Shown here one piece after another: positions 7,573 to 62,400 of a stretch of 64,000 nucleotides of DNA. The notes beneath the pieces were generated by a model. That model saw nothing but the letters and a program-made list of their open reading frames with translations, did no database searches and was not told the origin of the DNA. The DNA lies in assembly GCA_047967505.1 (NCBI GenBank), contig CM106538.1; one strand, 5' to 3'. This stretch comes from Dipteris shenzhenensis (taxonomy: Eukaryota). Position numbers and translations under genes: made by a program. Each line of letters starts with the position of its first letter. Within the stretch, counting starts at the first letter, position 1.

Positions 7573-9167
7573 ATGGCAGATAGGAGACTTAATTATGGGC
7601 TCAGCTGTCTCGCGAGAGAAGTTTGCTTCTGGCTCATTAATGTGCTTCTTGCCTGCGCTAGAGCGGAAGTATACATAGTAACACTAGACGGTGCCGCTGC
7701 TGGTGTAAAATATTCTGTGAAGGCTGCCGAAGGGGGTTTGGTTCATCGCAGGGTTTTCCATTCGAGGTACTCTCCCTCTGTTTCACTGCGTGTCCTTCAA
7801 TTCGTGTTTTGGCATCACCTGTCCATTTGGTTGTATTCCCAATCTTAAGGAGGAAGATAGGAATGGCCTTTGCGACATGTGCACCTCTGGCCATTGCGAC
7901 ATTCTTGTTATACAACGGCACTTCTAAATTAGTTCTTTTGGAACAGAAATGTGGATCAAAGTTTTCCGCTTGTAATAAGTGGTCGGTGAAACTAACGCCT
8001 GTCTTTAATCAAAATGATTTTTTTTGGTGTGATAGTCTAGCAGCTCGAGCCTACTCTGCACAGTTGGAAAACCAGCACGACACCCTTTTGAAGAGCACAT
8101 TTGAAGCCGCAACTTATAAAAAGCTCTACAGCTACAGCCATGTCATCAACGGGTTCGCGATAGACGTTTCTGCCGAGCAGGTACCTTTTTTTTTGCACCT
8201 TCGGAGGCCTTAGCCGCGTAATCCTTATAGTTTTATTCGAAAACGTCACTAGCCATTATACTTTGTCCCCTATAGGAAAGCTTTAACGTATGCTTATGAT
8301 GGTTTCAAAAGGCAGATACCTTGCGAAGATTGCCTGGGGTGATAAAACTCGAGAGAGACTGGCAGCTCAGAACGATGACTACTCACACGCCAGATTTTTT
8401 GGGTCTCCCTACTGGGGTTTGGCCTTTGGATGGAGGAGCTACAAGTGCAGGTGAAGGAGTGATAATTGGCATTATTGACACAGGAATTGACCCAACTCAT
8501 CCTAGCTTCTCGGCAGACGGCTCCATCCCCTATCCACCTTTAGACAAGTTTTATGGGAAATGCGAGGGAGCCGCTAGTGGTGTCAATGGCAGCTTTTGCA
8601 ATGGCAAAATTGTTGGAGCACAACATTTCTCGGCGGCTGCAGAAGCAGCTGGTGCCTTCAACTCGTCGACTGATTTCGCCTCTCCACTCGATGGAGATGG
8701 CCACGGAAGGTAAATCGCAATGCAGGTTACTTTGCAGGTTGGCAGCTTGTAAGTAATTGTAGGATGATAAGGTGAGACATGATCATCATCTGCATTGGAA
8801 ATTACTGAATCTATCGTCGCTTTGCTTTCAGCCATACTGCTTCAATAGCAGCTGGAAACCGTGGAATTTCAGTCGTTGATTATGGCTTTTACTTTGGTAG
8901 TGCAAGTGGAATGGCTCCTCGTGCAAGGTAGGGAAATTAAGACTCTTACAAGGATTGTGTGCTTAAATTTAGGACTCTAAGCCCTTTGTGAGCACTTAGC
9001 TATGAAATTTTTTTTGGGGAAAGGGGGGGTGGGGGGAATTTAGTAAAATTATGGGATCGCTGTTGGTTCGAGTCATCATCGCTACTAGACACATACAATT
9101 GCCGACTGTGGATATGGTAGTGTAGGACATTTACCAATCATGTACTGACGTGTCTTGGTGCTTGCAC

Positions 9168-9206
<39 letters not shown>

Positions 9207-11982
9207 TATATGACTCACGTAGAGAGAGAGAGAGAGAGAGAGAGAGCTCTGTATGACTCACTTGTTTGGACCGACCTTCCTTCGCAGAATATCTGTATAT
9301 AAAGCTCTTTACAGACAATTTGGAGGCTTCGTAGCTGATGTTGTTGCAGCAATAGATCAGGTAAGCTGGGGCATTGAACTTGTTTATTGCTCTCTTAAAA
9401 ATTTAGCAGCGCTATCTCAACAAGATTAGCAGTACACGACCGCAAAGTAGGGGAGAAGATAAACATGCCAGTTCTTATGATAACTGGAATTTATAAACAA
9501 ATTTGATTCAGCTCTCATCATGTTTTTTGGTTTGCCTTGTCTGAAATTTGGAGATGGGGATGACTTGAAAGCTTAAACCCAACCATATCAAACAACTTCT
9601 GTTCTATTAGACACACCAGTCACCTACTTCTTTGCCTAATGTCAGATTGTCAGGTTCATGTATTTGTACTGACTCTGCGTTTGGATAAATTAACAGGCAA
9701 CTAAGGATGGGGTGGATGTGTTGAGCCTATCCGTGGGACCGAGCAGTCCTCCATCAAGCATGCACACCACGTTTCTCAATGTCTTTGATGTGGCTCTCCT
9801 GTCAGCAGTGAAGGCAGGGGTGTTTGTAGTGCAGGCAGCAGGCAACGGTGGACCTTATCCCAGAACAATGACCTCTTTTAGCCCATGGATTGTCTCAGTT
9901 GCTGCAGGAATCGACGATAGGAACTACGCAAATTTACTCTCTCTTGGAAATGGAGCTAACTTGGCAGGGGCAGGACTTGCTCGTAAGTCCCACATCATCT
10001 GTGCCAACTCTACTTGCAAGCAAAATCTCCCACATAATGAAATTCTTCCATAACCTTCGATCGATGATTTTACTGAGTTTTGGATTTTGCGTGCCATGAA
10101 GAAGCCTGAGAATCAGCCATGGTTGGACAAACCATGGGACTTTGCTTAAGAATTGCACCAGTTCCCTTTTCCTAACATCTACTCTCAATATTATATATTA
10201 TTGGCAGCTGCCACCCCTGGAGATCAGATGTATAATTTGATGCTAGCTGAGGATGCACTGGTTAACAGCACGGGCTTCTTATATAATCCTAGCAACTGTC
10301 AGCAACCTGAGGCCTTCAATCAGGCTCTTGTTAAAGGCAAAATCCTGATGTGCACGTACTCGTTCAGCTTCATATATGGAGGGTCAACAGTGAAGAGAGT
10401 CTCAGATACTGCTCAAAACCTAAGTGCTGTGGGATTTGTGTTGCTCACAAGAACAGACCTGCCTGGGACAAAATTTAATCCAGTTCCCATTGAGATTCCT
10501 GGAATTGTTATAACGGATTTGCAGAACTCTCTTGTACGTAATTCATCAAGGTCCAGCTATATGTCCTTCAGATTAAAGCATTTCGTAGCTGGCTTTTCAA
10601 TCATTTGCCTCACTCGGAAGTTAGAACAATTACAAAGGACATTGTATTCAGTCAGTCTAAACTCCTACATTGCATCCATAATTAGAGTCAAATGTCACTG
10701 CGAGGCTAATCTCGTTGCAGTTTGTTTACTTTGTCAGGCTCTTCTGGACTATTACAATTCATCGATTGTAAGAGATTCAACGGGACAAATCACAGACTCT
10801 GGAGCCCGAGCCAAAATCGGAAATGGTTTAACTCCGGAGTATCTGGGAGGCGCCCCACAAGTAGCTCTTTATTCTTCGAGAGGGCCAAATGTAAAAGACT
10901 TCAACTTTGAAGACGCAGACATTCTAAAGCCTAATATCCTGGCGCCTGGCTCTTTGATATGGGCTGCGTGGACTGCGATTGGTATAGACGAGCCAGATTT
11001 TCAGGGTAAGTTCTGTGCATTGTGAAGTTGGAACTTGTAAGTGGGAATGCTTTGCAGTGGAGCCAGATTTTCAGGAGTGGAGCTGGAATTTGTAAGCTCC
11101 AGGGTCCAAAGAGCAAAATGGTTTCAAAATTCAAGGTTTTCAAGCGCTGATTGCAGGCATGAATTGGTTGATTGCTTCAGGTCAGACTTTTGCCATGATG
11201 TCTGGAACAAGCATGGCTACACCCCATATTGCTGGCATTGCTGCCTTACTGATACAAAGGCGTCCGAATTGGAGCCCAGCAGCCATTGCCTCGGCAATGC
11301 TGACAACTGCCTCGGTCGTCGATAATAAAGGGGCACCACTCCTTGCTCAGCGCTTCTCCGACTCTGGTGCTCTTGTTTTAGATCCTGCTACTCCGTTCGA
11401 CATCGGCAGTGGAGCCGTGAATGCAACTGCTGCTCTTGACCCTGGCTTGATCTTTGATGCAGGCATGTAGAGAGCAATGTGATTCTGTGCTTGGCTAATG
11501 CCATCTGGTATACATGATTGATTACTTACACACTACGGTTGATTTCTGTATCTCTCAATTTGGCAGGTTACGACGACTATATCAATTTTATCTGCTCAGT
11601 AACGAAGGTAGACTTTGCCCAGGTTCTCAACGCGACTGGTTCAAGCTGCAGCTCGCAGGTTGGGCAGCCTGTAGATCTCAACACTCCCTCCATCACCATC
11701 TCGAGCCTTTCAGACATTCAAACTGTCAAAAGGACAGTGACAAACGTAGCCAGCAACACCGAGACGTACACAGCAACATATGTGGCACCAACAGGCATAT
11801 CGATGCAAGTCGAACCTCAGTCAATCACGGTGCCAGCAGGGGAATCGGTGCAATTCTCCGTGGTTCTGAGGGCGGCCGCCTCTTCCAATGGAGAGTACAC
11901 GTTTGGTGCCCTGTTCTTGAGGGGTGATCAAGGGCATGAAGTGCGAATTCCTATCACCATACGAGCTGGGAAGAACCGCTAA
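7573..11982 (+). CDS. SBT2.5: Subtilisin-like serine protease, SBT2.5/2.6-like (signal peptide, I9 prodomain, S8 peptidase, PA, Fn3-like), 827 aa
   Basis: Exons 7573-7766, 8036-8180, 8312-8709, 8832-8927, 9288-9360, 9697-9982, 10208-10533, 10738-11005, 11181-11462, 11567-11982 total 2484 nt in one open frame. Motifs: TTHTPDFLGL maturation site, IIDTGI (Asp), DGDGHGSHTAS (His), AAGNGG, MSGTSMATPH (Ser). Intron 9 needs a GC donor. The symbol denotes the closest recognised subfamily. Confidence 0.95.
9166..9261. repeat. Duplicated CACGT(AG)n-GCT.TATGACT unit in subtilase intron 4
   Basis: Two (AG)n tracts, each preceded by CACGT and followed by CT(A/G)TATGACTCAC. Confidence 0.85.
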
Positions 11983-15569: not shown

Positions 15570-17538
15570 TCTACTGGAGAAGTTCTACTAAGACGCATTC
15601 ATGATATTCAATGTATGCGCCTGTCACAAACCCCTCACAAACGAGTATTTCATTTCATGCAAGCAAGTCGTGATATGTGGATGCATCGTTGCCATCATTG
15701 GGATACAAATCTCTATACTAGTTCAACAAGATAGGGAAACCCATCTTCCTTGGATGATATCCTAATCCGGGTGTGATTTCTTAGCGATCTTAGACCACGA
15801 AGAGTTATTAAAGTTGGACTTTTTGAATGCTTAGATTCCCTTTCAAAGAAAACTGCATTGAAAACTTGATGCTTGACATAGGGAAGGAGGCATGAGGTTT
15901 TTTTTTTAAGTCCATGGAAATACCCATTTGCAGTAGGAGTCGAAGTGTACCTCATAAGATTAGAGGCAGAGTTGTTGTGCGAAAGGATGTATGGAGGAGA
16001 ATCAGCTATGACAAAAGCAAGTAGGGCGGGCAATAGTTAGATTTGTGGGGTTTAACTCTTGTGTTGGGTGAAATAATCAAGGAAGTGGGATGATACATCT
16101 CAATCATAGAAGAGCACAATCTAGAGAGAGCAAGCCAGGAACGTGGAGGCATTGAAGGGGTCGAAAGAGTCGCATTCAAATTTGAAGTGGTTTTTTGACC
16201 AAACCGATATCCCAAGTGTGATCAAAGGTCGTAACAATGGCGAGTTACTTGAAGTTGAGGGCTATGGATCCTACTGTGTAGAATGGCATCTAGCTGTTGA
16301 CCTCAAGACTGTTAAATTTATGTTTAATGTGGCACATGGAGAAAATACAAGCCATCCTTGTCCACCGTGCATGCAAACGAGAGTACCTGCAAAGGGTGGT
16401 AAAAAGAATCAAAACCAATGGGCTTCTAAACTTGCAGAGATAGATCAAACTAAGGCATCGGATAGGGATGCTCCAGGGAAAGATCCATCATGGAGCCCAA
16501 TTCTTGAAATTCCTCTTGAGCGAGTACACATTTGTGCGCTTCATGCTATTGTGAGAATAATTGAAAAGTTGGTGCATTTGTACATCATTGATGCATATAA
16601 CTTGAACCCCAACAAGAGAGTGAGAGCATGATTGCAAGAATTGAAAAGGTTCTTTCAGATATGGGACTACACTCTAGGCAAGTAAAGATTACAAAAGATG
16701 AGAAAATATGAGAAAAGATCTAGAAAAACAAGCAATGTTCCTTGTAAGCCAACCTTTGGTGGTGTCAAGGCTTTAAAATTCATTTTTGCAAAGAGGAAGA
16801 ATGACAAGCTCAAACGTGCTAATGAGTTTGATGTATGAGAAAGTTACACAATGCCTATTGTGAAGGAGGGGGGAAGGGACAAAAAAGATTGGAAAAGGCA
16901 CAAGTGTGGTGAGCTCTTGCTAGCTTGGTACCTTTACTACAAAAGAAAAGATTCGAAGATGATGATGCATAGTGTTTCATCAATGCTATGAATGACTTTA
17001 GCTGGAATATGGAGATAGCTTGGGGAAAGAATCATTTCACACAGTACATAGTAATCTCTAGCTTGGACATTGAGATGTGCATATTGAATGATCCTATATT
17101 TACTAATTTGTTTTTTCTATTTGGCAGCACATTTTATATGCGCATGCATCACACATGGCATGGAATTATGGAAGCGTTGGAGTGTGGTCCACTCACGGCA
17201 TGGAAAGATCACATTAGCAAGCATGTTGTGCATATAATAGAGCGACCCAACATGGGGGAGGTAGAACTAAGTCAAGCCCAATGGTTCAATTGGTTCAATG
17301 GTGATACTACAGGTTTATCGAAATAAGAGCAGCTGTAACACTAGCATTCAAAGAGTCCTTGGTGTCCCATGCAGTGCAAGATGTTAATGCAGAACGTAAA
17401 AAAAGAATATACAACTCATCAAATGCAAGATAGAATCATGCACGGTGGTATGCAACCCGTCAAAAACAAGGGCGCATATGGGTGGAGATAGATGAAAATG
17501 ATGGTGTAGACTCTTCCAATGTGGATGTCCATGCATAA
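15570..17538 (+). pseudogene. Decayed DDE transposase of RAG1/Transib-like type, with a 77-nt intron
   Basis: Colinear motifs: ISYD (D at 16010, tentative), KESHSNL, HLAVDLK (D at 16299), CPPC, ICALHAIVRIIEKL, TFGGVKALKF and, after splicing GT-AG intron 17051-17127, TQYIHILYAH...YGSVGVWSTHGMERSH (E at 17203). Several stops and frameshifts. 5' boundary uncertain. Confidence 0.8.
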
Positions 17539-17718
17539 GTTTCAGAATTTCATTGTAATTTTAGTTATGTGATTTGCAGTAAAGTCAACATATAATGGCC
17601 ATAAGTTGTAGTATAAATGAGAAATTTTGAGTTATTAGATGTTAATTATAAGTATTCTCAAGGTTGCACCAATTTTACTTTTATTAGAGTTTTCATTAAA
17701 ATAACTATTTTTTAAAAT

Positions 17719-17741
17719 TAGGGTTTTGGGCCCTATATAAA
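17719..17741 (+). promoter_or_regulatory. Telo-box + site II + TATA cluster upstream of the histone H3-like gene
   Basis: TAGGGTTT (17719-17726), TGGGCC (17727-17732) and TATATAAA (17734-17741), 133 bp before the ATG at 17874. Confidence 0.5.
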
Positions 17742-17873
17742 AGAATGGGTCCTCATTTTTATTTCATTGTTTAAATAGCTCTCCAATACCACACCACCTC
17801 CCACTTGCCCCTGACATTTCCACGCTATCTCTTGCCACCTGACCCTTTCTCTCGCACACTCTCTCCACCCCCC

Positions 17874-18656
17874 ATGGGTAGGCCCAAGATCAAGGCACCA
17901 TGGAGACTGGCACAGCAAGACCCACCTCCAGATTCAAAGACATAGAGTGATAGCATCCCCCCCTCTCCCCTCGATGATCCCCTCGAAGGGAGAAACTGCC
18001 AATCCGGAAGCTAGATAGAGATCAAGGAGTAGGCCCGTAGACAGAGGGATAGAGGAAGTCACAAGAGGATCATTATGCAAAGGCCAATGGATCAGAGAAC
18101 ACAGAGGAGGGGCGCGTCGAAGAGGAACAATGAAGGACAGAGCAGAGGACTTAGGCAAGAATAGACAATCAGGGTCCATGCAACTGGGGGAGAGGACACT
18201 GAGCTCCAAGTCTAGGGCAAAGAGTCCCTAAACATCCAGGAAGAGGCCCTCCACATCAAGGGCAAAGAGGCCCTCCTCCAGTGAGAAGATACAGATTCAA
18301 GCCGGGGACGGTGGCACGTTAGGAGATCAGAAAGTTTCAAAAGTCCATCGATCTGTTCATCCCGATGGCGAGCTTCGCAAGGGTACGCGAGGTCATGCAG
18401 GACCTCAACAATGGCTCAACGTCCTGGTTTTATAGGTGCAGAGTTGTGAAGGCTCCCTAGCGTATTTCTAGGGACTCCTTGCTTGCCATGCAGCATGCAT
18501 TTGAGGCCTACCTAGTAGATCTACCTCATGGATGACACCCAGTTTGTTGCCATCCATAAGAAAAGGGTCATGGTGACCGCCAAAGACATGCAGTTTATTG
18601 TCCATCTTAGGAACCCCAAGGGCACTTACGAATGTTGTATGCTCTGCCTTGGGTGA
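17874..18656 (+). pseudogene. Decayed divergent histone H3 / CENH3-like gene with long N-terminal tail
   Basis: From 18284: RRYRFKPGTVAR*EIRKFQKSIDLFIPMASFARVREVMQDL-(long loop)-RISRDSLLAMQHAFEAYLVDL, frameshift at about 18521-18524, then MDDTQFVAIHKKRVMVTAKDMQFIVHLR. This is a recognisable H3 histone fold. Probable start MGRPKIKAPWR at 17874. Stops at 18320 and 18458. Confidence 0.9.
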
Positions 18657-18716
18657 TAGTTAGAGTTCATGTACTCTGCCTATGGGCATCTGTCTTGTAT
18701 CAGCCTCTTTTCAATA

Positions 18717-18838
18717 TAATAAAAAGTCTTTTTTTGATTTGTCTTGTATGTGCAATCTCAAATTTATTTTCATTGTAATAAAATGTCTTTTTTTGAATTG
18801 GCTTTGTATGTACAATCTCAAATTTATTTTCATTGTAT
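18717..18838. repeat. 60-bp AT-rich tandem duplication in the H3-like 3' region
   Basis: AATAAAA.GTCTTTTTTTGA...CAATCTCAAATTTATTTTCATTGTA occurs twice, each copy with AATAAA. Confidence 0.85.
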
Positions 18839-19081
18839 TTGCAATCTATTAATTTACTTACATGCATTTACTTATGAAAGACTTTCTAATGATGTATACA
18901 ATAGCAAAATGAAATAATAAACATCGAATCTTAATAGAACATGCAAAAGGAATAATACTCAATTTTACTTAACATGGAAAAGGAAGCAATGTTCTGTAGC
19001 GAGAAGATAAAATAATTTGAAAATGGTATTCTTTATTGATATAGAGTAGTATTACAAAGAGCACCCACTTAAATGCACAAG

Positions 19082-19530
19082 CTACTCTAGTCTACGCCTA
19101 CACTTCTTTCTGCTTGGCTCAGTTCCCTTTTTTGCTTGCTCAAGTAGAGAGGGTTGCACAATTTCATTCTCTATAGCCTGGGGATCTGTAATGCTAGCTA
19201 GCCTTACAATAGCTATGATACTATGGAGAGGACCAGATCGTGTGGCCAAGAACAAAAATAAAGCTACACGATGCCTAACCAAAACAACACGATCTGCAGT
19301 AGGACGGATGGGCCTCATCTTCACCATCCAACTGAGGACCCTAAACTTTATGATATTCAGCTTTCCATCCGGCGATGCGATGGAACACCAAAATGTGTTG
19401 AGTCACTCTGTTGATGTAGTGGCCGATCAAAGTCATCCCCCCACCAGAAGACCCTCTGGTTCCACTCTTGCGTCTGGTATATTCATCAACCCATAAGATA
19501 TCCTACAACCAACATATCCTTATAGAAATT
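19082..19530 (-). pseudogene. Unidentified decayed coding-like segment convergent on the H3-like gene
   Basis: Balanced-composition block between AT-rich DNA and the fold-back repeat; minus-strand ORF 19082-19327 ends in a basic stretch (RKKCRRRLE). No family recognised. Confidence 0.3.
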
Positions 19531-20270
19531 GGGCTCTGGTCGCATGATGTCAGATTTAGGGCTTGCAGGGGTTTTTTTGTCATACAAATCATGCACATGG
19601 TTGTTGATGTCTCAGTGGCCTCCCAAATATGATTTTTTAAACATATTATTTTTCATATGTGAAAAAACCGTAAAACTAATTATATTCCATGTGGCCTAAA
19701 TAAAAACCATAAACCTGTTATCTTCCCTATGTTACAAAACCATAACCCTTAAAATTTGGTTGGGTTTTGTATCCTAAAGCCTAAACCCTATTTTTGGGAG
19801 GCCACTGAGACATCAACAACAATGTGCATGACTTGTATGCAAAAAAGCCCCTTGCAAACCTTAATATCATCCCCTCTCTCTATACTCAAAAAGGTAGAGA
19901 AAGAGCGAAAAATGATAGAACACTCGTTTTTCTCACTCCTTTCGTTGAGGGATGATTGAGGGAGAGAGACAGAGATTGTATTTCAAATTGCTAGGCTTTA
20001 GAAGTATTTGAGAAAGAAGGAAGAAAAAGAGATCCTAATCAAAGAGTTTTGGGAGGGAGAGAGAGAGTGATATAATATTGATAATGTTTTCTTTGTTTAT
20101 GGAGAAACAGAGTAGGAAGAGAGCATATCTTAAACTAAGTATTTCAAAATAATTTGATGTTTGTTTGTGTGAGGGGTATCTTGGAAGACAGACTGAGAGA
20201 GATAGAAGTATTCTATGTTCTTTGAAATAATTTTTGTTTGTTTTTGTGAGAGGTTTAGTTAAAGGAGAGA

Positions 20271-20306
<36 letters not shown>

Positions 20307-21650
20307 CTTGCAAAGAAAGAGAAAGAGAGAAGAGAAGACATAAATTTTGAGGGTCTATGGAAGTAGAAAGCGGTAGAAAGAGCTAATTTTAATCATATGG
20401 TACAGGGGCAAAAACTATGAAAGTAGAAAATGATAGATATAGAAGTAGTTTACAGTCTGTTGTACTGAAGAATGTTAAGGATGAGCATGGGGAATGGATT
20501 CCTAAGCTCTACAGGAAATATTCTTGGATCACAATGCAAGCCACTAATCGTGGGTGCTACAAAGTGGGTTGGAAGGATGCAATGGACATCTCCAAACATT
20601 GGAAGGGAAGAATCTTAGATTTTGAAATTTCTCCTGGTAGCAACACAGTGACACAGGTATATATTCAGCACGTCTTTACCCATGCAAACATATACGTGAA
20701 TTCAAATGCATGACTTCCATATCGTAAGCCCAATTGTAAGTTTTTCAAAGTGCACTAGTACTTCATTTGCATTTTAGAGTATTTGCATTTATTTGGGGAC
20801 TTTGACACAACTGTCTTATGCCTTGTATTTATTTTACAGATTTATATCCATCTACTTTACAAAGAGTGGGAGCCTGCAGCATGCATAATTGGGGTGTTGC
20901 ATGTCCATGTTGAGATCGGGAGTCTTCAATATGAAGGTCACACACCATCAGAATTAAAAAAGGATGGGATCTTCTTCTATGACTCAATGTTCATTGTGCT
21001 AGATGAAGAAGGATAGTATGGTAGTCTAGGTTCCATTTTAGCAACAAATATCATTGCTTTGTTTTCAACTAGTAGGGAAAAAAATAGGGTTTAGGGTTTA
21101 GGGTACAAAATCCAACCAAATTTTATGATTTTAAACCTAGGACATCCTACCACTGCCACTTGCCCCTGCAACTCCATTTGTGGAAAAAATTAGGGTTATG
21201 GTTTTATAACATAGAAAAATAATATTTTTAAAAAATCATATGTGGGAGGCCATTGAGACATCAACCATGTACATGATTTGTATGTAAAAAAACTCCCTGC
21301 AAACCCTAAATCTGACATCGTGCGACCAGAGCCCTATTTAGAGTACAAAACCCAACCAAATTTTATGGTTTTAAACCTAGGACATCTTGCCACTACGACT
21401 TGCCCCTGCAACTCCATTTGTGGAAAAAATTAGGGATATGGTTTTGTAACATAGAAAAATAATATGTTAAAAAAATCATATTTGGGAGGCCATTGAGACA
21501 TCAGCAACCATGTGCATGATTTGTATGCAAAAAAACCCCCCTACAAACCCTAAATTCGACATTGTGCAACTAGAGCCCAGTTTGACTCTCTATACTCCAA
21601 AAAGGTAGGGAAAGAATCGAAAATGAGAGAGCCGTTTTTCTCACTCCTTC
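19531..21650. repeat. Fold-back repeat complex: long inverted repeats plus a 240-bp tandem pair
   Basis: 19531-19690 is the reverse complement of about 21180-21334 and 21420-21578; 19553-19632 also pairs with 19790-19865; 21101-21340 and 21341-21580 are tandem copies; 19790-19942 is a direct repeat of 21479-21650. Confidence 0.9.
20406..21016 (+). pseudogene. Decayed two-exon fragment encoding a BAH-like domain
   Basis: Acceptor at 20405 and intron 20736-20839 (GTAAGT...TTTACAG). Joined peptide WKGRILDFEI...VTQVYIQHVF...KPNYLYPST-(fs)-KEWEPAACIIGVLHV...DGIFFYDSMF follows the BAH pattern (W.ARI.E, V.V.W, NEL..S, I.G...V, FF). One stop (20711) and one frameshift. Assignment is by eye. Confidence 0.5.
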
Positions 21651-49100: not shown

Positions 49101-51743
49101 GCTTGATCCCATGCTTGCGACAAAATGTATTAAACTCACTTGAGGTGAATTCTCCCCCCCTGTCTGTGCGAAATGTCTTGGCATCCTCCCCTGTCTCCTT
49201 TTCAACTCTAGCCCTCCAGTCTTTGAATTCCTCAAAAGCCTGAGACTTTTTAGCCAAACAATATACCCAAGTCATTCTACTGAAATCATCCACAAAGAGA
49301 AGTGAATACCTGGATCCTGCCCATGATGCAGTAGACATTGGACCACAAATGTCGGCGTGAACCAACTCAAGTGGTTTGCTGGCCCGAAACGAAGCTTCTT
49401 GTGGGAACTTATCCCTGTGCTGCTTGCCTTCTAGACAAGCCCTACAGACATCATCCTTGCCTGTAATTGGTGGAAGTCCATCCACCATTTTCGACTTTGA
49501 CATTTCAGCCAAGATTCCATAGCTGACGTGACCGAAGCGCTTATGCCAAAGTTTGGACTTTTCGTGATCGTCATGAACCAACATTGCACTGAGACGGTAC
49601 AGTCCATTCTCTTCAACACCCTGTGCCACCACTTGCCCACTCCCTTTGGATGTCACGGTAACCTTGCCATCTTGAAAAAGAACTGCCATGTTGTTTTTGT
49701 CCATCTGACTTACAGATAGTAAATTCTTGCAAAGGTCGGGTACATAAAGTACTCCAGAGATATCCTTCTCCTCACCCGCCGTGGTAATGAAAGGAATGCT
49801 ACCGATGCCCTTCACAGGACATGTCCAGCTATCCCCGACAGAAACTTTGGAATCCGGGTGTGTACTTTCCATGGTTTTGAACCACATCCTTGTGTTGGAC
49901 ATGTGCTTAGAAGCACCGCTGTCAACATACCAACCCTCTTTACCTTCACTAACTGCATAAGCTGAACAATGTTCACTGAGTAAGAATAACTGTCCAGTTG
50001 TCACATTGGCAGAATCACTCTTAGGCTCTTCTTTGTTTTTGGCTTCTCTTTTCCGCTTTTGATCCGCCTTCTTCTTCCGGCATTCTTTGGCGGAGTGGCC
50101 AAGCTTTTCACAGTAAAAGCACTTCATTTTCTTCTTATGTTCAGCATCCTCTGATTTCTTGGAATCCTTTGACTTGCCTTTGCCAGGCTTGTCTTTGGCA
50201 ACCAATGCCTTTTCGTCAGTTTGCGTAAAGAGTTTCTCTCGAGCCTCCTCCTGAAGCAGGAGTGGTGGACAAAGCTCCTCAAAGGTGATTGGCTTTGTCC
50301 GTTGACCCGCAGTGACCATAGTCACAAAACTTTTGAAACTCCGTGGCAACTTGTGGAGTGTGAGTAATGCTAGTTGACTCGTGTCCACCTTCTGACCAAC
50401 CGTTGCGAGCTGGTCCCGCACAACTTTCACCTTTGTCAGATGATCATGCACACTATCACCCTCATTCATATCAAGTTTATAAAGCTGATGCTGCAGTGTG
50501 ATGATACGAGCTGTATTATCGGTTTCATACAGCTCCTTCAATATGGTCCACGCTTCTGAAGACGTCTCTACCAACTGGATATGAGGAATCACAGCATCTG
50601 CTGTCGTGCCTATAAGCATTGCTAAGGCTTGAGCATCCCTCTCCTCCCATGCACAGAGTTCATCCGCATCTGCTTCAGCTAGAACTTCACCTCTTTTGTC
50701 CACAATGTCCTCCGGCTTTTCTTCGGTCCCATTGACAATCTTCCACAACCTCCGTGCCAACAGATGGCTTCGGATCTTGACTTTCTAGATTGGAAATTTC
50801 GTACCATCGAGCTTTCCAGCTTCACCGAAATTAGGGATAAATGAAGAAGGAAGATGACTGGAGAAGGAGGAAGGACGAGCAATGGATGTAGAGGCTTCTG
50901 ATCACTGATCCATCTCGGTGAATAGCTAAAAAAACTGAATAACTGAAACAGAAATAAATGAACTAACCTTCTGTACTAGACTGAGCTGAAAACAGAGTTG
51001 CCTTATTGCCAAGGAACTCCTTCCTTCAGAGAGTGTTTTTGATGAGGAAGAGTCGAGAGCCTATGGCTCTGATACCATGTTAGAAAACAGAAGGAAAGAA
51101 TCACTCCAACCTCCAGCCAAGATCTCTCCCGCTCTAGCAACACTCAACTCAGATAACTGATCACAGATACAATACTCACTCAGAGAAAACCTAGACAGAG
51201 AGAGAATATATTCATCCACCGGATGGTGGGCAGAAAACTGGTTCCAGGGGAGCAATACAAAACTCAGCCAAGTGCTGAGGCGAACTGAAGGAACTCTCTC
51301 TGTCAGAAGATACCAAATCTGAGTGCACAGCATAGCCTAAAACTGAGGCTTTCTATCCTGCGCTGGATGCCAAAATGGAGGGAAGTGTGGGCCTTTTATA
51401 GGCACTGCCCAGGCCTTCTGGTTTGGCCGACCAGCAGGGTCGCGGTCCCCTGACTGGTGACCGACCAGATCAGTCTGGAAAACCGACCAGGGTCGGTGGC
51501 CCTGGTTGGGCCGACTGGCCCTGCCACAGGCCCCTATAAAAGGGTGCCCTGTGCAGCCAGTCCATGCTTCTAGGAAGGCAAAGGGCCCCCCCCAAATCTC
51601 TGCTGTTTGCTGATAGCAGCCAGCCCGTGTGCTGGTTGCCAACTCTGTTTGCCTGGGTCTCTCTTTCCCAGCCCTCCTTACTCTCACTGCCCCTTGTCCC
51701 CACAAAACGGGGGCTCACAGGTGGGTACAGTGAGTCTCTAACA
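46175..51743 (-). mobile_element. Full-length Ty1/Copia LTR retrotransposon
   Basis: LTRs 46175-46826 and 51078-51743 (TGTTAG...CTAACA), PBS 51065-51077, PPT 46827-46836, complete gag-PR-IN-RT-RH order. Confidence 0.97.
46840..50913 (-). pseudogene. Copia gag-pol polyprotein, single frame with three premature stops
   Basis: Zn knuckle CFYCEKLGHSAKEC, protease WYVDSGAS, integrase HADICGP/RTDRGGEF, RT QMDVKSAFLNG/LYVDD, RNaseH DSDWAG. ATG at 50913; in-frame stops at 50902-50904, 50785-50787 and 49051-49053. Confidence 0.95.
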
Positions 51744-52894: not shown

Positions 52895-53269
52895 TTACAC
52901 ACAAAAGTTATTGAGCTTCTTAAGCTGAATTTTCCTTGCCTTCGTGCTTGTGCCATACAATTTGTGAATGATCTCCCAAGCTTCTTTAGGCCTACTAGCC
53001 TTTTTTATGTGAGGAATGAGTGTATCGGAAATGCATAAAGATGTCCAATGCAACACCTTTCTTGATTTCTCAACCCATGTCTTGTATTCCAATTTCAGCT
53101 CATCCGAGGGCTCATCCCAAGGCAACTCTGGGCATTCATCTTCACCCGTGATCAATCCCCAAACACTTTTTTTCATGAGGAAGTTTTCCATTCTATAAGA
53201 CCAAGCGCTATAATTATCATTTGTTAGCTTTTCACCCATGACTTGGGTTACTTGAGTGGTCTCACTCAT
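52895..53269 (-). mobile_element. Copia gag N-terminal fragment
   Basis: EKLTNDNYSAWSYRMENFLMKKSVWGLITG...KEAWEIIHKLY. Confidence 0.85.
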
Positions 53270-53989
53270 ACTTGATTAACAATATTTTTACTTCCAAATG
53301 CAACTTAGCAAACCTCAAGGCAATTGCGCTTTTCTGAATTTTTTGAGCACACTCACTTCAAGTGAGGTAAATGGCATCAAAAGCTGAGAATTCACCTTCT
53401 TTCCAAGTATTCACACTTGCTCAAATTTTAGGCATCCAAGAGCATCAAATGTAAGCACTAACAGTCCACTTTCGAGCATCAATTCAAGCATCTACCAATG
53501 CACTTATGGCATTTTCCACTTTCTGTAAATGAGCGTATTTTGGCATTAACCGGCCACAAATTGCCTTCCAAATGTGCTTTTGCAATGGTTCACCAAACTA
53601 AAAATTTATCCCACGCTTTAGGCATCATATATGCATCCGATTTTGGGCATACACACACTTATTTGCATCCTCCAATTCAAATTTACTGGCAAAAGTTTAC
53701 TTCATGTGCACAAAGGCATTTACACTTCACCAACTGAGCATATGACCTCCGGTATCAACACTTTTCTACCCAAATATGCAATTTCCTGCAAACAAGTGCT
53801 ACCCCAAATGGCAATTGCTTCCACCATGATACTCACGGGTACTATGCCAAGCTTTGCAAAGTGGAACTGAAGTAAATGTACGAAAGAGCAATAAGTGCTT
53901 ACTTGGTGTCCCACAAAATAGGCATCATGTATCCTCCTTTGTATTCAAATATTAATAAAGCACACGTCCTTTAATCCCATTTAAAATTT

Positions 53990-59469: not shown

Positions 59470-62400
59470 CTGCACCACCAAAACCTCTACTACAACCTCC
59501 ACATAAAGTGTTGGAGCATGATATGGCTTCAACCGATACCCATTGACTGGTTTCAGAATTGCATTCCCATACATATCCTCCAATTTGAATGTTCCCTCTC
59601 CAAAGACGTCAACAATCTTGTAGGGACCATTATATCTCAACTTCAGTTTACTAGGACGAGGGCCCAGTTTAGAATTAAACATCAATACTAGATCCCCCTT
59701 TCGGAACACCTTAAATTTGATATCCTATTGACCCATGCTTGTCTCCTCTTTTAGATCACATCTAAAATGTATGAGCTAACAACCCGATCCTCTTCCAACT
59801 TTAGCAACTGTTGGATCCTATGATGAACCGACTCTTCTAGAGACAACCTGCATTCAGCCACTATTTGAAGACTTGGTCCAATAAACTCCATTGGAACCAC
59901 AGCTTCACACCCATATACCAGACGAAACGGTGTCATTCCAGTATAGTCACTTTGTATGCTGTTCGGAATGCCCATAATGCCGAGTGTAACTTCTGGTCCC
60001 AGTCAGTTTTGTTCTCTAAAACTATTCTCCTGAGGATTTTCTTAAATGTCTTATTTGAATTTTCAGCCTAACCATTAGCTTGTGGATAATAAGTAGTGGA
60101 CTTCTTATGCACAATCATATGTAAACTTGTTAGTGTTTTCATTACTTTGTTCAGAAAATGAACTCCCTAATCCAAAACTATCTCAATTGGACACCCAAAT
60201 CTAGTCATGATATTATAATATAGAAACTTAGCTGTGCTTGTAGCTGTATTATCCCTCAATGCAATTGCTTCCACCCACTTTGTACAGTAATCTGTAGGCA
60301 CCAGAATATACTTGTTCCTAGTATACTTGGCAGGTGGTTTGATAGGACCCATAAAGTCAAGCCCCCATTTCTGGAAAGGACCTAGAGGTAGCACGGGTTG
60401 GTGTGACATTCTATCTGCATAGTTGGTCTTCCATTTTGTTGACACGGTAAACAAGTCTTGGCAAATTCATGAGCATCCTTCAAGACTTTGGGCCACCACA
60501 AACCGGCCTGAAGTATCTTTTTGTCAGTGATGTCCCCCGAATAGTGCCCTCCCAAACTTCTAGCATGTGCTTCCATGAACATAGCTTTTCTCTCATAATC
60601 GGGGACACACCTCCTGATCACTTGATCAATGCCTCTCTTGTACAACACCCCAGCTATGACCAGAAATGGTTTACTATGTAGTACAAATTTCTTCCTTTGA
60701 TCTCGGGATAATGACTGAGGTACCACGCCATCTATTAGAAATAACAACATCTAATCATACCAATCGTGCCCTTCCTCCGTACTGATAAAAAATAAATGAG
60801 CATCATGTAGATCATCTTGTACCCCCACATGTTCTTCACCACTCAGCAATCTGCTTAAATAATCTACAACAACATGCTGTTTTCCTGGTGTATGCACAAT
60901 GTCATAATCATATTCTTGAAGCAAAAGTATCCACCTAGCTAGTCAGCCAGACAATTGTGGTTTATTCACCAAATAAATAAGTGCCTGATGATCCACATGT
61001 AGTACCACTATATTTCCCAACAAATATTGTCAAAATTTTTGGAGAGGATATGCCATCCCCAATGCTTCCCTCTGAGTCACACTATAATTTTGTTCTGCTT
61101 TTGTCATTCTCCTACTTGCATAGTATATAGGCTAAAACCAACCTTTAACAAATTGTTGTATCAACACTGCTCCAATAGCCACATCTGAAGCATCCACAAA
61201 ATATGAAATGGCAACTTCCAGTTAGGTGGTTTGAGGATGGGTGCTACCACTAACATTTTCTTTAATAGAATGGAAGCCTTTTGTTGTGGTTCTTCCCATG
61301 TAAACAATTCCCCCTTCTTGGTAAGCTTTGTCAGAGGTACACAAACATAAGATAGATACTGTAAAAATCTGCTATGCCACTTAATTTGCCCAACAAAGCG
61401 TGATAACTGCTTTAAGGTTCTAGGTGTAGGGGCGGTTTTGAATGACTTCCACTTTTCGTGAGTCTATGGTCATCCCTTCTTCGGAAATTATATGTCCCAG
61501 CAAGACACCCCTTTTTACAACAAATGCACATTCCTTCGAGAATCTAGAAAAACTCTGATGAAAGTAGTCAACTAAGGAGCAAAGACTTCCTGGATCCATT
61601 TGTGAAATGTGGGAGGTGCATTCTTAAAACCAAAAGTCATAACATTACAGGCAAAAACTCCCCACTTTGTGATGAAAGTTGTCTTCTCTCTGTCCTCCAG
61701 AGCCATCCTTATCTGATTGTAGCCACTAAAACCATCCAAGAAACTATGCATTTCATGACTAGCTATAGCATCAAGCATTGTGTCACAAAAAGGTAATGGA
61801 AAAGGGTCGATTATTGTTGCTACATTTAATTTTCTGTAATCAACACATACTCTCAGCTTACCATTCTACTTAGGTACTATGACTCTATATAGGTGAAAGC
61901 CAAGTTCCCTTATTAACTAGATAAATGAACCCCACCTTGAGTAGCTTATCAATTTCCTCTTTCATCCTCTGAGCACAGTTTGGATTCTCATTCTATATCT
62001 TTGTTGAACCACTGGGATAGCATCTTTCTTCAAGTTAATTCTATGTTGGCAAAAAGATGGATGAACTCCTTTCATATCCGTGTAATGCCAAGCAAACTCA
62101 TCCTTGAATTCCAATAACAATATATGCAAAGCTTCAGAAAAAGTTGCATCTAACAAAGCAATAACATGTACCAATTTTGGACCTTGTTCTGTTCCAAGGT
62201 TCATCTTAGTTAAATCATCCTCCTAGACTCTCGCACACTTCCTTAAGTGATCCTCAAATGCTATTTCGGCTTCAATGATTGGTTTGGTTTTAACATAAAC
62301 TTCTTCCTTCTCCTCATCAACGTCACACTTGTCTGCATAAACTCCATCTGACTTCTTTTCTTTGCCCTCTTCTTGGGCTTCCTTCGAACTGAGACTGTCT

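Follow-up and report, generated by a model that had tools for sequence, protein, structure and literature searches.

A broken histone H3-type gene copy in a fern-like genome, probably the remains of a CENH3-type variant with a long loop 1

Positions 17874-18656 (+) of the window, by which we mean the whole 64,000-nt stretch of DNA analysed here, raise the question of what kind of histone H3 gene once stood there and how this copy came to its place. The preliminary description had read a single H3-type histone fold across these positions, and every residue feature that it listed was found again when we re-read the window. Taken as a whole, the locus is best explained, and with good probability, as a dead gene copy in a fern-like plant genome, the gene having encoded a histone H3 variant of the CENH3 type. 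The recognizable parts of the relic are the following:

17874-17945, plus strand: MGRPKIKAPWRLAQQDPPPDSKT, the putative start of the old coding frame, in frame 1 and closed by a TAG at 17943-17945
17946-18283, plus strand: degenerate tail region rich in R, G, P, and E, lacking a continuous frame as judged from the stop positions in each frame
18284-18322, plus strand: equivalent of alphaN, RRYRFKPGTVAR (18284-18319), with an in-frame TAG (18320-18322), frame 3
18323-18403, plus strand: EIRKFQKSIDLFIPMASFARVREVMQD, the end of alphaN and alpha1, frame 3, with Ala at the H3 Gln68 position
18404-18460, plus strand: loop 1, 19 codons made up of LNNGSTSWFYRCRVVKAP and the TAG at 18458-18460, homologous to the 20-residue loop of the protein family introduced below
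18461-18523, plus strand: RISRDSLLAMQHAFEAYLVDL, the start of alpha2, frame 3, with Ile at the Phe84 position
18521-18528, plus strand: frameshift inside alpha2 from frame 3 to frame 1, placed at 18524 and marked by two tblastn HSPs in different frames
18525-18659, plus strand: LMDDTQFVAIHKKRVMVTAKDMQFIVHLRNPKGTYECCMLCLG (LMDDTQFVAIHKKRVMVTAKDMQFIVHLRNPKG...LG, 18525-18653), the end of alpha2, loop 2, alpha3, and the C-terminal extension, frame 1, followed by TGA TAG

The Pfam Histone model matches the locus in three collinear pieces (model positions 41-69, 74-94, and 94-122; E 3.9e-4, 0.027, and 1.2e-3), each of which by itself lies below the gathering score. In a tblastn comparison of 14 H3-family proteins with the window, all 11 queries from the long-loop family described below matched the relic at E 3.7e-24 to 8.4e-18 and the three other H3 queries matched it at E 1.1e-14 to 1.1e-13; no locus in the 64 kb besides the relic was found at E < 0.1. 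Our own frameshift-aware alignment confirmed the path through the fold, and its alignments across the tail were unreliable. Within the fold, the residues reported earlier are all in place: Ala at the Q68 position (SFAR within LFIPMASFAR), Ile at the F84 position (RIS), a Thr that is kept (DDTQ), and 19 residues between the equivalents of D77 and R83, where canonical H3 has 5. There is no intron-sized interruption, as had also been stated, the 121 codons from PGTVA to the stop spanning 364 nt. Alpha1 is one residue short relative to its relatives (FAR-VRE), the step from the D of AYLVD to the H of AIH takes 40 nt in the relic versus 12 codons in canonical H3 and in the family, and the C-terminal extension has nearly the length of the family's.

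The tail is harder to read. It does begin with MGRPK, from the ATG at 17874 in frame 1. The roughly 135-aa tail that had been proposed corresponds only to the 410 nt between the ATG and alphaN, and no single frame is open across them. Open stretches lie in frame 2 (18019-18228) and frame 3 (18203-18319), at least two frame switches are needed, and a 21-nt unit is repeated 2.8 times in tandem at 18214-18276. The region is rich in R, G, P, and E and is unlike H3 beyond MGR.K. MGRPKIKAPWRLAQQDPPPDSKT resembles the family start MGR[ILV]KQCAKRLP... and the DSERTESD block by eye only, and a profile comparison of the first 46 residues of the relic with the family tail gave E 0.25, which is not significant.

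The locus is a broken H3-type gene copy, a pseudogene that cannot make protein. The fold carries three lesions on its homology-supported path, namely a TAG at 18320, where the relatives have the Arg of ALREIR, a TAG at 18458 inside loop 1, and a frameshift near 18524. Splicing cannot remove any of them because all three are sited in residues that align gap-free to the relatives. We also considered repair of the TAG stops by RNA editing and ruled it out, since the frameshifts would remain and, in the portions of the literature available to us, known fern editing is organellar. The relic stands out from its flanks in GC content (0.516 versus about 0.38), the mark of an island that used to be coding. 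Its CpG observed/expected ratio has dropped to the window background (0.39), the value for an intact F-box ORF in the same window being 0.69.

Of 52 candidates found with a read-through translation of the relic carrying X at the two TAGs (P0001), 47 proteins reached E <= 1e-3. The best match was a 168-aa protein, P0002 (E 7.2e-17), with the next at E 1.2e-8. P0002 has ten full-length relatives (P0056-P0065, 61-89% identity); P0281, P0282, P0285, P0290, P0291, P0292, and P0297 came in addition from searching 1.84 billion representatives with a profile. All sequences of this long-loop family are ENA or Logan records. Intact members are 155-210 aa long and share a start of the form M-G/A/V-R-x-K, LLIP.A.FAR in alpha1, a loop 1 of 19-20 residues, and an 11-residue C-terminal extension, RNN.DAF..DP.MP. 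Among the 18 family rows of our alignment, loop 1 has 20 residues in 15, 19 in 2, and 15 in 1 (P0292), while 47 of the 134 aligned rows have a loop of 5 residues.

The loop of the relic matches that of P0002 at 9 of 19 residues (LN......FYR...KA.P). The relic and the family also have in common LFIP.ASFAR (LLIP.A.FAR in the family), REVMQDL, M.DD, and T.KDM, and in tblastn the family members score 83.6 + 36.2 bits at the relic versus 58.2 + 28.5 for a canonical-like H3 (P0007). Part of the long loop had earlier been taken as a possible intron remnant. We reject this idea because intact family proteins carry a loop of the same length, 19-20 residues in 17 of the 18 rows, and share residues with it. 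On sequence comparison, the long loop 1 of the relic is an inherited family trait. Several members in other assemblies (P0162, P0281, P0290, P0291, and P0297) look degenerate or truncated at otherwise invariant positions of the fold, so dead copies of the long-loop family seem to be common.

Searches elsewhere added little to this picture of the family. A scan of JGI metagenome contigs with the family alignment kept 80 loci whose best identities were 45-58%; these were generic H3-like sequences, and no close family member was among them. An ESM Atlas look-up of P0002 returned broad histone clusters only. An AlphaFold monomer model of P0002 from a 21-row alignment reached a mean pLDDT of 63.2 and a pTM of 0.36, and it predicts, at low confidence, a short helix at residues 91-99 within the loop insert; we give this model no weight. 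An ORF upstream of one family member had looked like a transporter fragment, a candidate that we dropped when Pfam returned no family in it.

Phylogeny supported the grouping with the family and left one canonical-like alternative standing. The full set held 134 rows: 148 representatives minus the two-fold rows and those longer than 235 aa, plus the family rows, the relic, and seven rows from the P0001 search. A quick tree of this set contained an exclusive clade of the relic and 18 family rows (SH-aLRT 76). That tree had not converged, and we regard it as superseded because a constrained search reached a likelihood 39.9 higher. In a careful tree of 41 rows hand-picked from the 134, built on 152 columns that include about half of the loop columns, the relic and 14 family rows form one clade with support of 97/92, and a 99/94 branch separates this clade from the canonical-like rows. 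Within the clade, the relic has no fixed place after P0292 and sits on a long end branch (1.73). A placement of the relic beside three canonical-like H3 rows lowers lnL by 9.63 and is not rejected by an AU test (p-AU 0.201). The case for family membership is thus made by the tree in combination with the loop, the motifs, and the scores.

The AU result also bears on a plainer explanation, namely a decayed canonical H3 or H3.3 pseudogene in which mutational noise, or a small insertion, produced the long loop and the residues that look like CENH3. The retained Thr107 would fit such an origin, as does the canonical-like grouping left standing at p 0.201. Noise is nonetheless a poor account of 14 extra loop codons that keep the frame and look like those of the family (FYR, KA.P), of LFIP.ASFAR, REVMQDL, M.DD, T.KDM, and a C-terminal extension length common to relic and family, and of family bit scores about 33 bits above those of canonical-like H3. 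We regard a canonical pseudogene as hardly credible and retain the reading of the relic as a dead member of the long-loop family.

Is this family of the CENH3 type? In the excerpt available to us, PMC4359364 gives, after Malik & Henikoff 2003, an extended loop 1 and the lack of Gln68, Phe84, and Thr107 as the CenH3 diagnostics. The same excerpt of PMC4359364 prints the Thr position as 118, which we read as 108 counting Met (EDTN), Gln68 being 69 on that count. The relic has an H3-type fold (collinear Pfam Histone matches, tblastn E 3.7e-24), and its loop 1 is extended, with 19 residues, as it is in 17 of the 18 family rows (19-20 residues), versus 5 in canonical-type H3. At the Gln68 position, the 15 family rows of alignment A2 have Ala in 11, Asp in P0058 and P0059, and Ser in P0282, with Gln kept in P0292. 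Where H3 has Phe84, the relic has Ile (RIS) and the family Trp (RWS). Thr107 is still present in the relic (DDTQ) and is absent from the family, every intact member of which has Gly or Val. The relic is no intact gene, its frame being broken by stops and frameshifts. The earlier recognition of CENH3-type features in a decayed H3 variant was largely right.

Judged by its residues, the long-loop family itself is in agreement with the published CenH3 diagnostics. Among solved structures, P0002 matches S. pombe Cnp1 best (E 7e-28), with H3 entries narrowly behind at about 1e-25. In the careful tree, the clade of relic and family lies in a polytomy of non-canonical H3s that includes named CENH3; the quick tree placed the family with named CENH3s at a support of 49. 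Green-plant CENH3s are the nearest relatives that carry names. The neighbors of the family in the trees are the Humulus lupulus CENH3 (P0370), the tomato record P0345, and a Chlorokybus protein, a position that is weakly supported. We think it reasonably likely that the long-loop family is the CENH3 of a fern lineage.

A bolder reading, which we hold only tentatively, is that the relic records an H3 variant lineage of ferns or related plants that has yet to be described, derived from CENH3 and distinguished by a conserved, structured loop 1 insert of about 15 residues, a conserved DS.RT.SD tail block, and the RNN.DAF..DP.MP extension. The paralogues of such a lineage appear to fall into two groups or more (P0002-like and P0061-like), and dead copies of it to arise again and again. 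These plants could have it as their only centromeric histone, docking kinetochore proteins through a surface of a new kind, or it could instead be a second, noncentromeric H3 variant, confined for instance to the germ line.

How the copy arose is best judged from its flanks, in which two features stand out:

17718-17741, plus strand: promoter-like cluster of TTAGGGTTT (17718-17726), TGGGCC (17727-17732), and TATATAAA (17734-17741), 133 nt upstream of the ATG
18708-18837, plus strand: 60-nt unit repeated 2.2 times in tandem in the 3' flank, with an AATAAA-like signal in each unit, found by reading and by repeat search

The promoter-like motifs, all of them short, are what we take to be a telo-box, a site II element, and a TATA box. 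The 15-nt composite of the cluster occurs once in the window, and AAACCCTAA occurs 5 times versus 0.69 expected. No E2F-type site (TTTSSCGS) was found upstream of the relic; the window as a whole has 3 matches to this pattern versus 5.3 expected, one of them inside the relic on the minus strand.

With promoter-like motifs kept and neither a poly(A) tract nor transposon ends in evidence, a copy duplicated at the DNA level, or an old locus silenced and then left to decay in place, fits better than a retrocopy or a transposon passenger and is the most likely origin of the relic. A processed pseudogene, made from a host long-loop CENH3-type gene by a LINE-type reverse transcriptase and then decayed, would explain why 364 nt hold the 121 codons of the fold without an intron-sized interruption. 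Angiosperm CENH3 genes have introns in the fold, and in the tomato record P0345 the translation runs on through such an intron inside alpha1; the other degenerate or truncated family copies (P0162, P0281, P0290, P0291, and P0297) would suit the same process. The flanks speak against it, however. At 18.71-18.79 kb the AATAAA-like signals are not followed by an A-run, the sole direct repeat in the flanks, and thus the one candidate for a target-site duplication, is an 18-nt pair of 89% identity at 16723 and 18977, 2254 nt apart, and TATA, telo-box-like, and TGGGCC motifs precede the ATG. The intact 168-aa family ORFs, moreover, sit on contigs of 3.4-6.9 kb, and the parents may be intronless; if these contigs are genomic, the parents are intronless and the lack of introns in the relic says nothing. 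We consider a retrocopy unlikely.

A transposon-borne H3 variant, the other origin that had been put forward, was not borne out: the 64-kb window offers no terminal repeats around the relic, no adjacent transposon ORF, and no second copy. In this scenario, a Helitron, Pack-MULE, or similar element would have captured the gene and carried it as one of a set of dispersed copies. In its favor, repeats are frequent in the window (a Copia element at 46.2-51.7 kb, MITE-like inverted repeats at 19.5-21.6 kb, and fragments of Gypsy and Copia elements), and several degenerate family copies exist in other assemblies. Against it, neither terminal inverted repeats nor long terminal repeats bracketing the relic were found in the window, and the relic with its flanks (17300-17880 and 18650-19500) has no other match in the 64 kb at E < 0.009. 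Fifteen ORFs of 100-168 aa that we tested at 13-34.5 kb contain no Pfam family at E <= 0.01, the lone match at a looser cut-off of 0.1 being a PHD at chance level (E 0.069). Capture by a transposon is accordingly very improbable, well below retroposition, and we keep to a DNA-level duplicate or a locus decayed in place.

The rest of the window is plant-like and contains genes and mobile elements in their own right. A multi-exon subtilase gene at 7662-11982 (+) has a Peptidase_S8 match, and its exons resemble plant SBT2-type subtilases by eye. At 39157-40590 (+) lies the intact, intronless ORF of an F-box/LRR-repeat protein 14-like protein, whose closest named relatives are from Adiantum nelumboides (69%) and Ceratopteris richardii (66%), with Taxus, Magnolia, and Diphasiastrum at 54-55%. 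On these matches the host looks like a fern, one not close to either Adiantum or Ceratopteris. The Copia LTR retrotransposon (46175-51743, minus strand) has two open frames of 577 and 736 aa with gag, zinc knuckle, integrase, RVT_2, and SH3-like domains; an identity of 96-99% between its LTR segments suggests a young insertion. A Copia-type gag piece follows at 52898-53275 (-), and a Gypsy-type integrase zinc-binding (H2C2) domain lies at 60385-60750 (-). A 121-aa ORF at 34057-34422 (-) looks by eye like a Pif1/Helitron-type helicase C-terminal motif (RRQFPIRLAFGMTINKSHGQTL) and has no Pfam match at E <= 0.1. The MITE-like inverted and tandem repeats at 19526-19864 and 21080-21583 consist of units of about 240 nt with arms 87-94% complementary and telomere-like TTTAGGG, and they hold 3 of the 5 AAACCCTAA sites of the window. 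Starting 1.2 kb upstream of the relic, a 168-aa open frame at 16125-16631 (+) has no Pfam family and contains a Cys/His stretch (HPCPPC ... HICALH). A GC-rich stretch holds a perfect 126-nt tandem duplication (29092-29343, 100% identity), and a GA/GAGG microsatellite, purine-rich and about 3.5 kb long (34900-38400), in which GC skew reaches 0.89, gives spurious long ORFs in all frames.

Homosporous ferns are said, after Pichersky et al. in 1990 (a reference of PMC13496105), to carry many defective gene copies. The relic itself is an ordinary pseudogene; the intact long-loop family is the more interesting object and appears to be little described. In the literature as far as its text was available to us, we found nothing on the loop structure of fern CENH3 or on a long-loop family; Zedek & Bures 2016 (PMC5024113) analysed 8 fern CenH3 sequences, according to the part of the paper at hand, and its supplementary alignments may already show the loop. 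A 2026 review describes, in the section accessible to us, the centromere structure of homosporous plants as scarcely known except in hornworts, which would make intact family members natural reagents for mapping fern centromeres. The relic serves as a pointer in this respect, as it brings a fern-like genome into the range of an H3 variant family with CenH3 hallmarks and an unusually long, conserved loop 1. We note that CenH3 hallmarks by themselves are no proof of a centromeric role.

Loop 1 of CENP-A is part of the centromere-targeting region. By analogy with CENP-A/CENH3 biology, an intact family member may replace H3 in nucleosomes, most likely centromeric ones; its loop 1 and alpha2 would then give specificity of deposition, and its C-terminal extension might dock kinetochore proteins.

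Comparison with known histones places the relic and the family as follows. With canonical H3 and H3.3, the relic has in common the fold and the PGTVA..EIR..QKS, AYLV, and AIH.KRV motifs; it differs in that Gln68, Phe84, and the 5-residue loop are replaced and the tail appears not to align, and canonical H3 scores lower at the locus (E 1.6e-14 versus 1e-24 for the family). S. pombe Cnp1 (CENP-A; PDB 9lrv) is the best sequence match of P0002 among solved structures at 101 bits (E 7e-28) and likewise has RW at the junction of loop 1 and alpha2, whereas nine residues of the family loop have no counterpart in Cnp1 in this alignment and the C-terminus differs. Green-plant CENH3s, such as that of Humulus lupulus (XP_062091534.1, P0370), resemble the family in the H3 fold, a start of the M(A)RTK type, LLIP.A.F.R without Gln68, the RW(T/S/Q)A(E/Q)AL of the family at the start of alpha2, the absence of Thr107 from the family, and a C-terminus longer than that of H3. 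The family loop 1 is nevertheless 12-13 residues longer than that of P0370, the green-plant C-terminus reads GGKGRPW where the family has RNN.DAF..DP.MP, and the relic departs from green-plant CENH3 in being broken, in having Ile rather than Trp at position 84, and in keeping Thr107. Arabidopsis HTR12 is a further green-plant CENH3. The closest system is the long-loop family (P0002, P0056-P0065, P0282, P0285, P0292, and others). Its members are intact where the relic has stops and frameshifts, are only about 51-56% identical to it, have tails of about 40-100 codons versus a tail region of about 136 codons, and carry Gly or Val rather than Thr at the T107 position and Trp rather than Ile at position 84. 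Relic and family are nonetheless alike in loop length (19 versus 19-20 residues) and shared loop residues, in the alpha1, alpha2, and alpha3 motifs, and in the length of the C-terminal extension.
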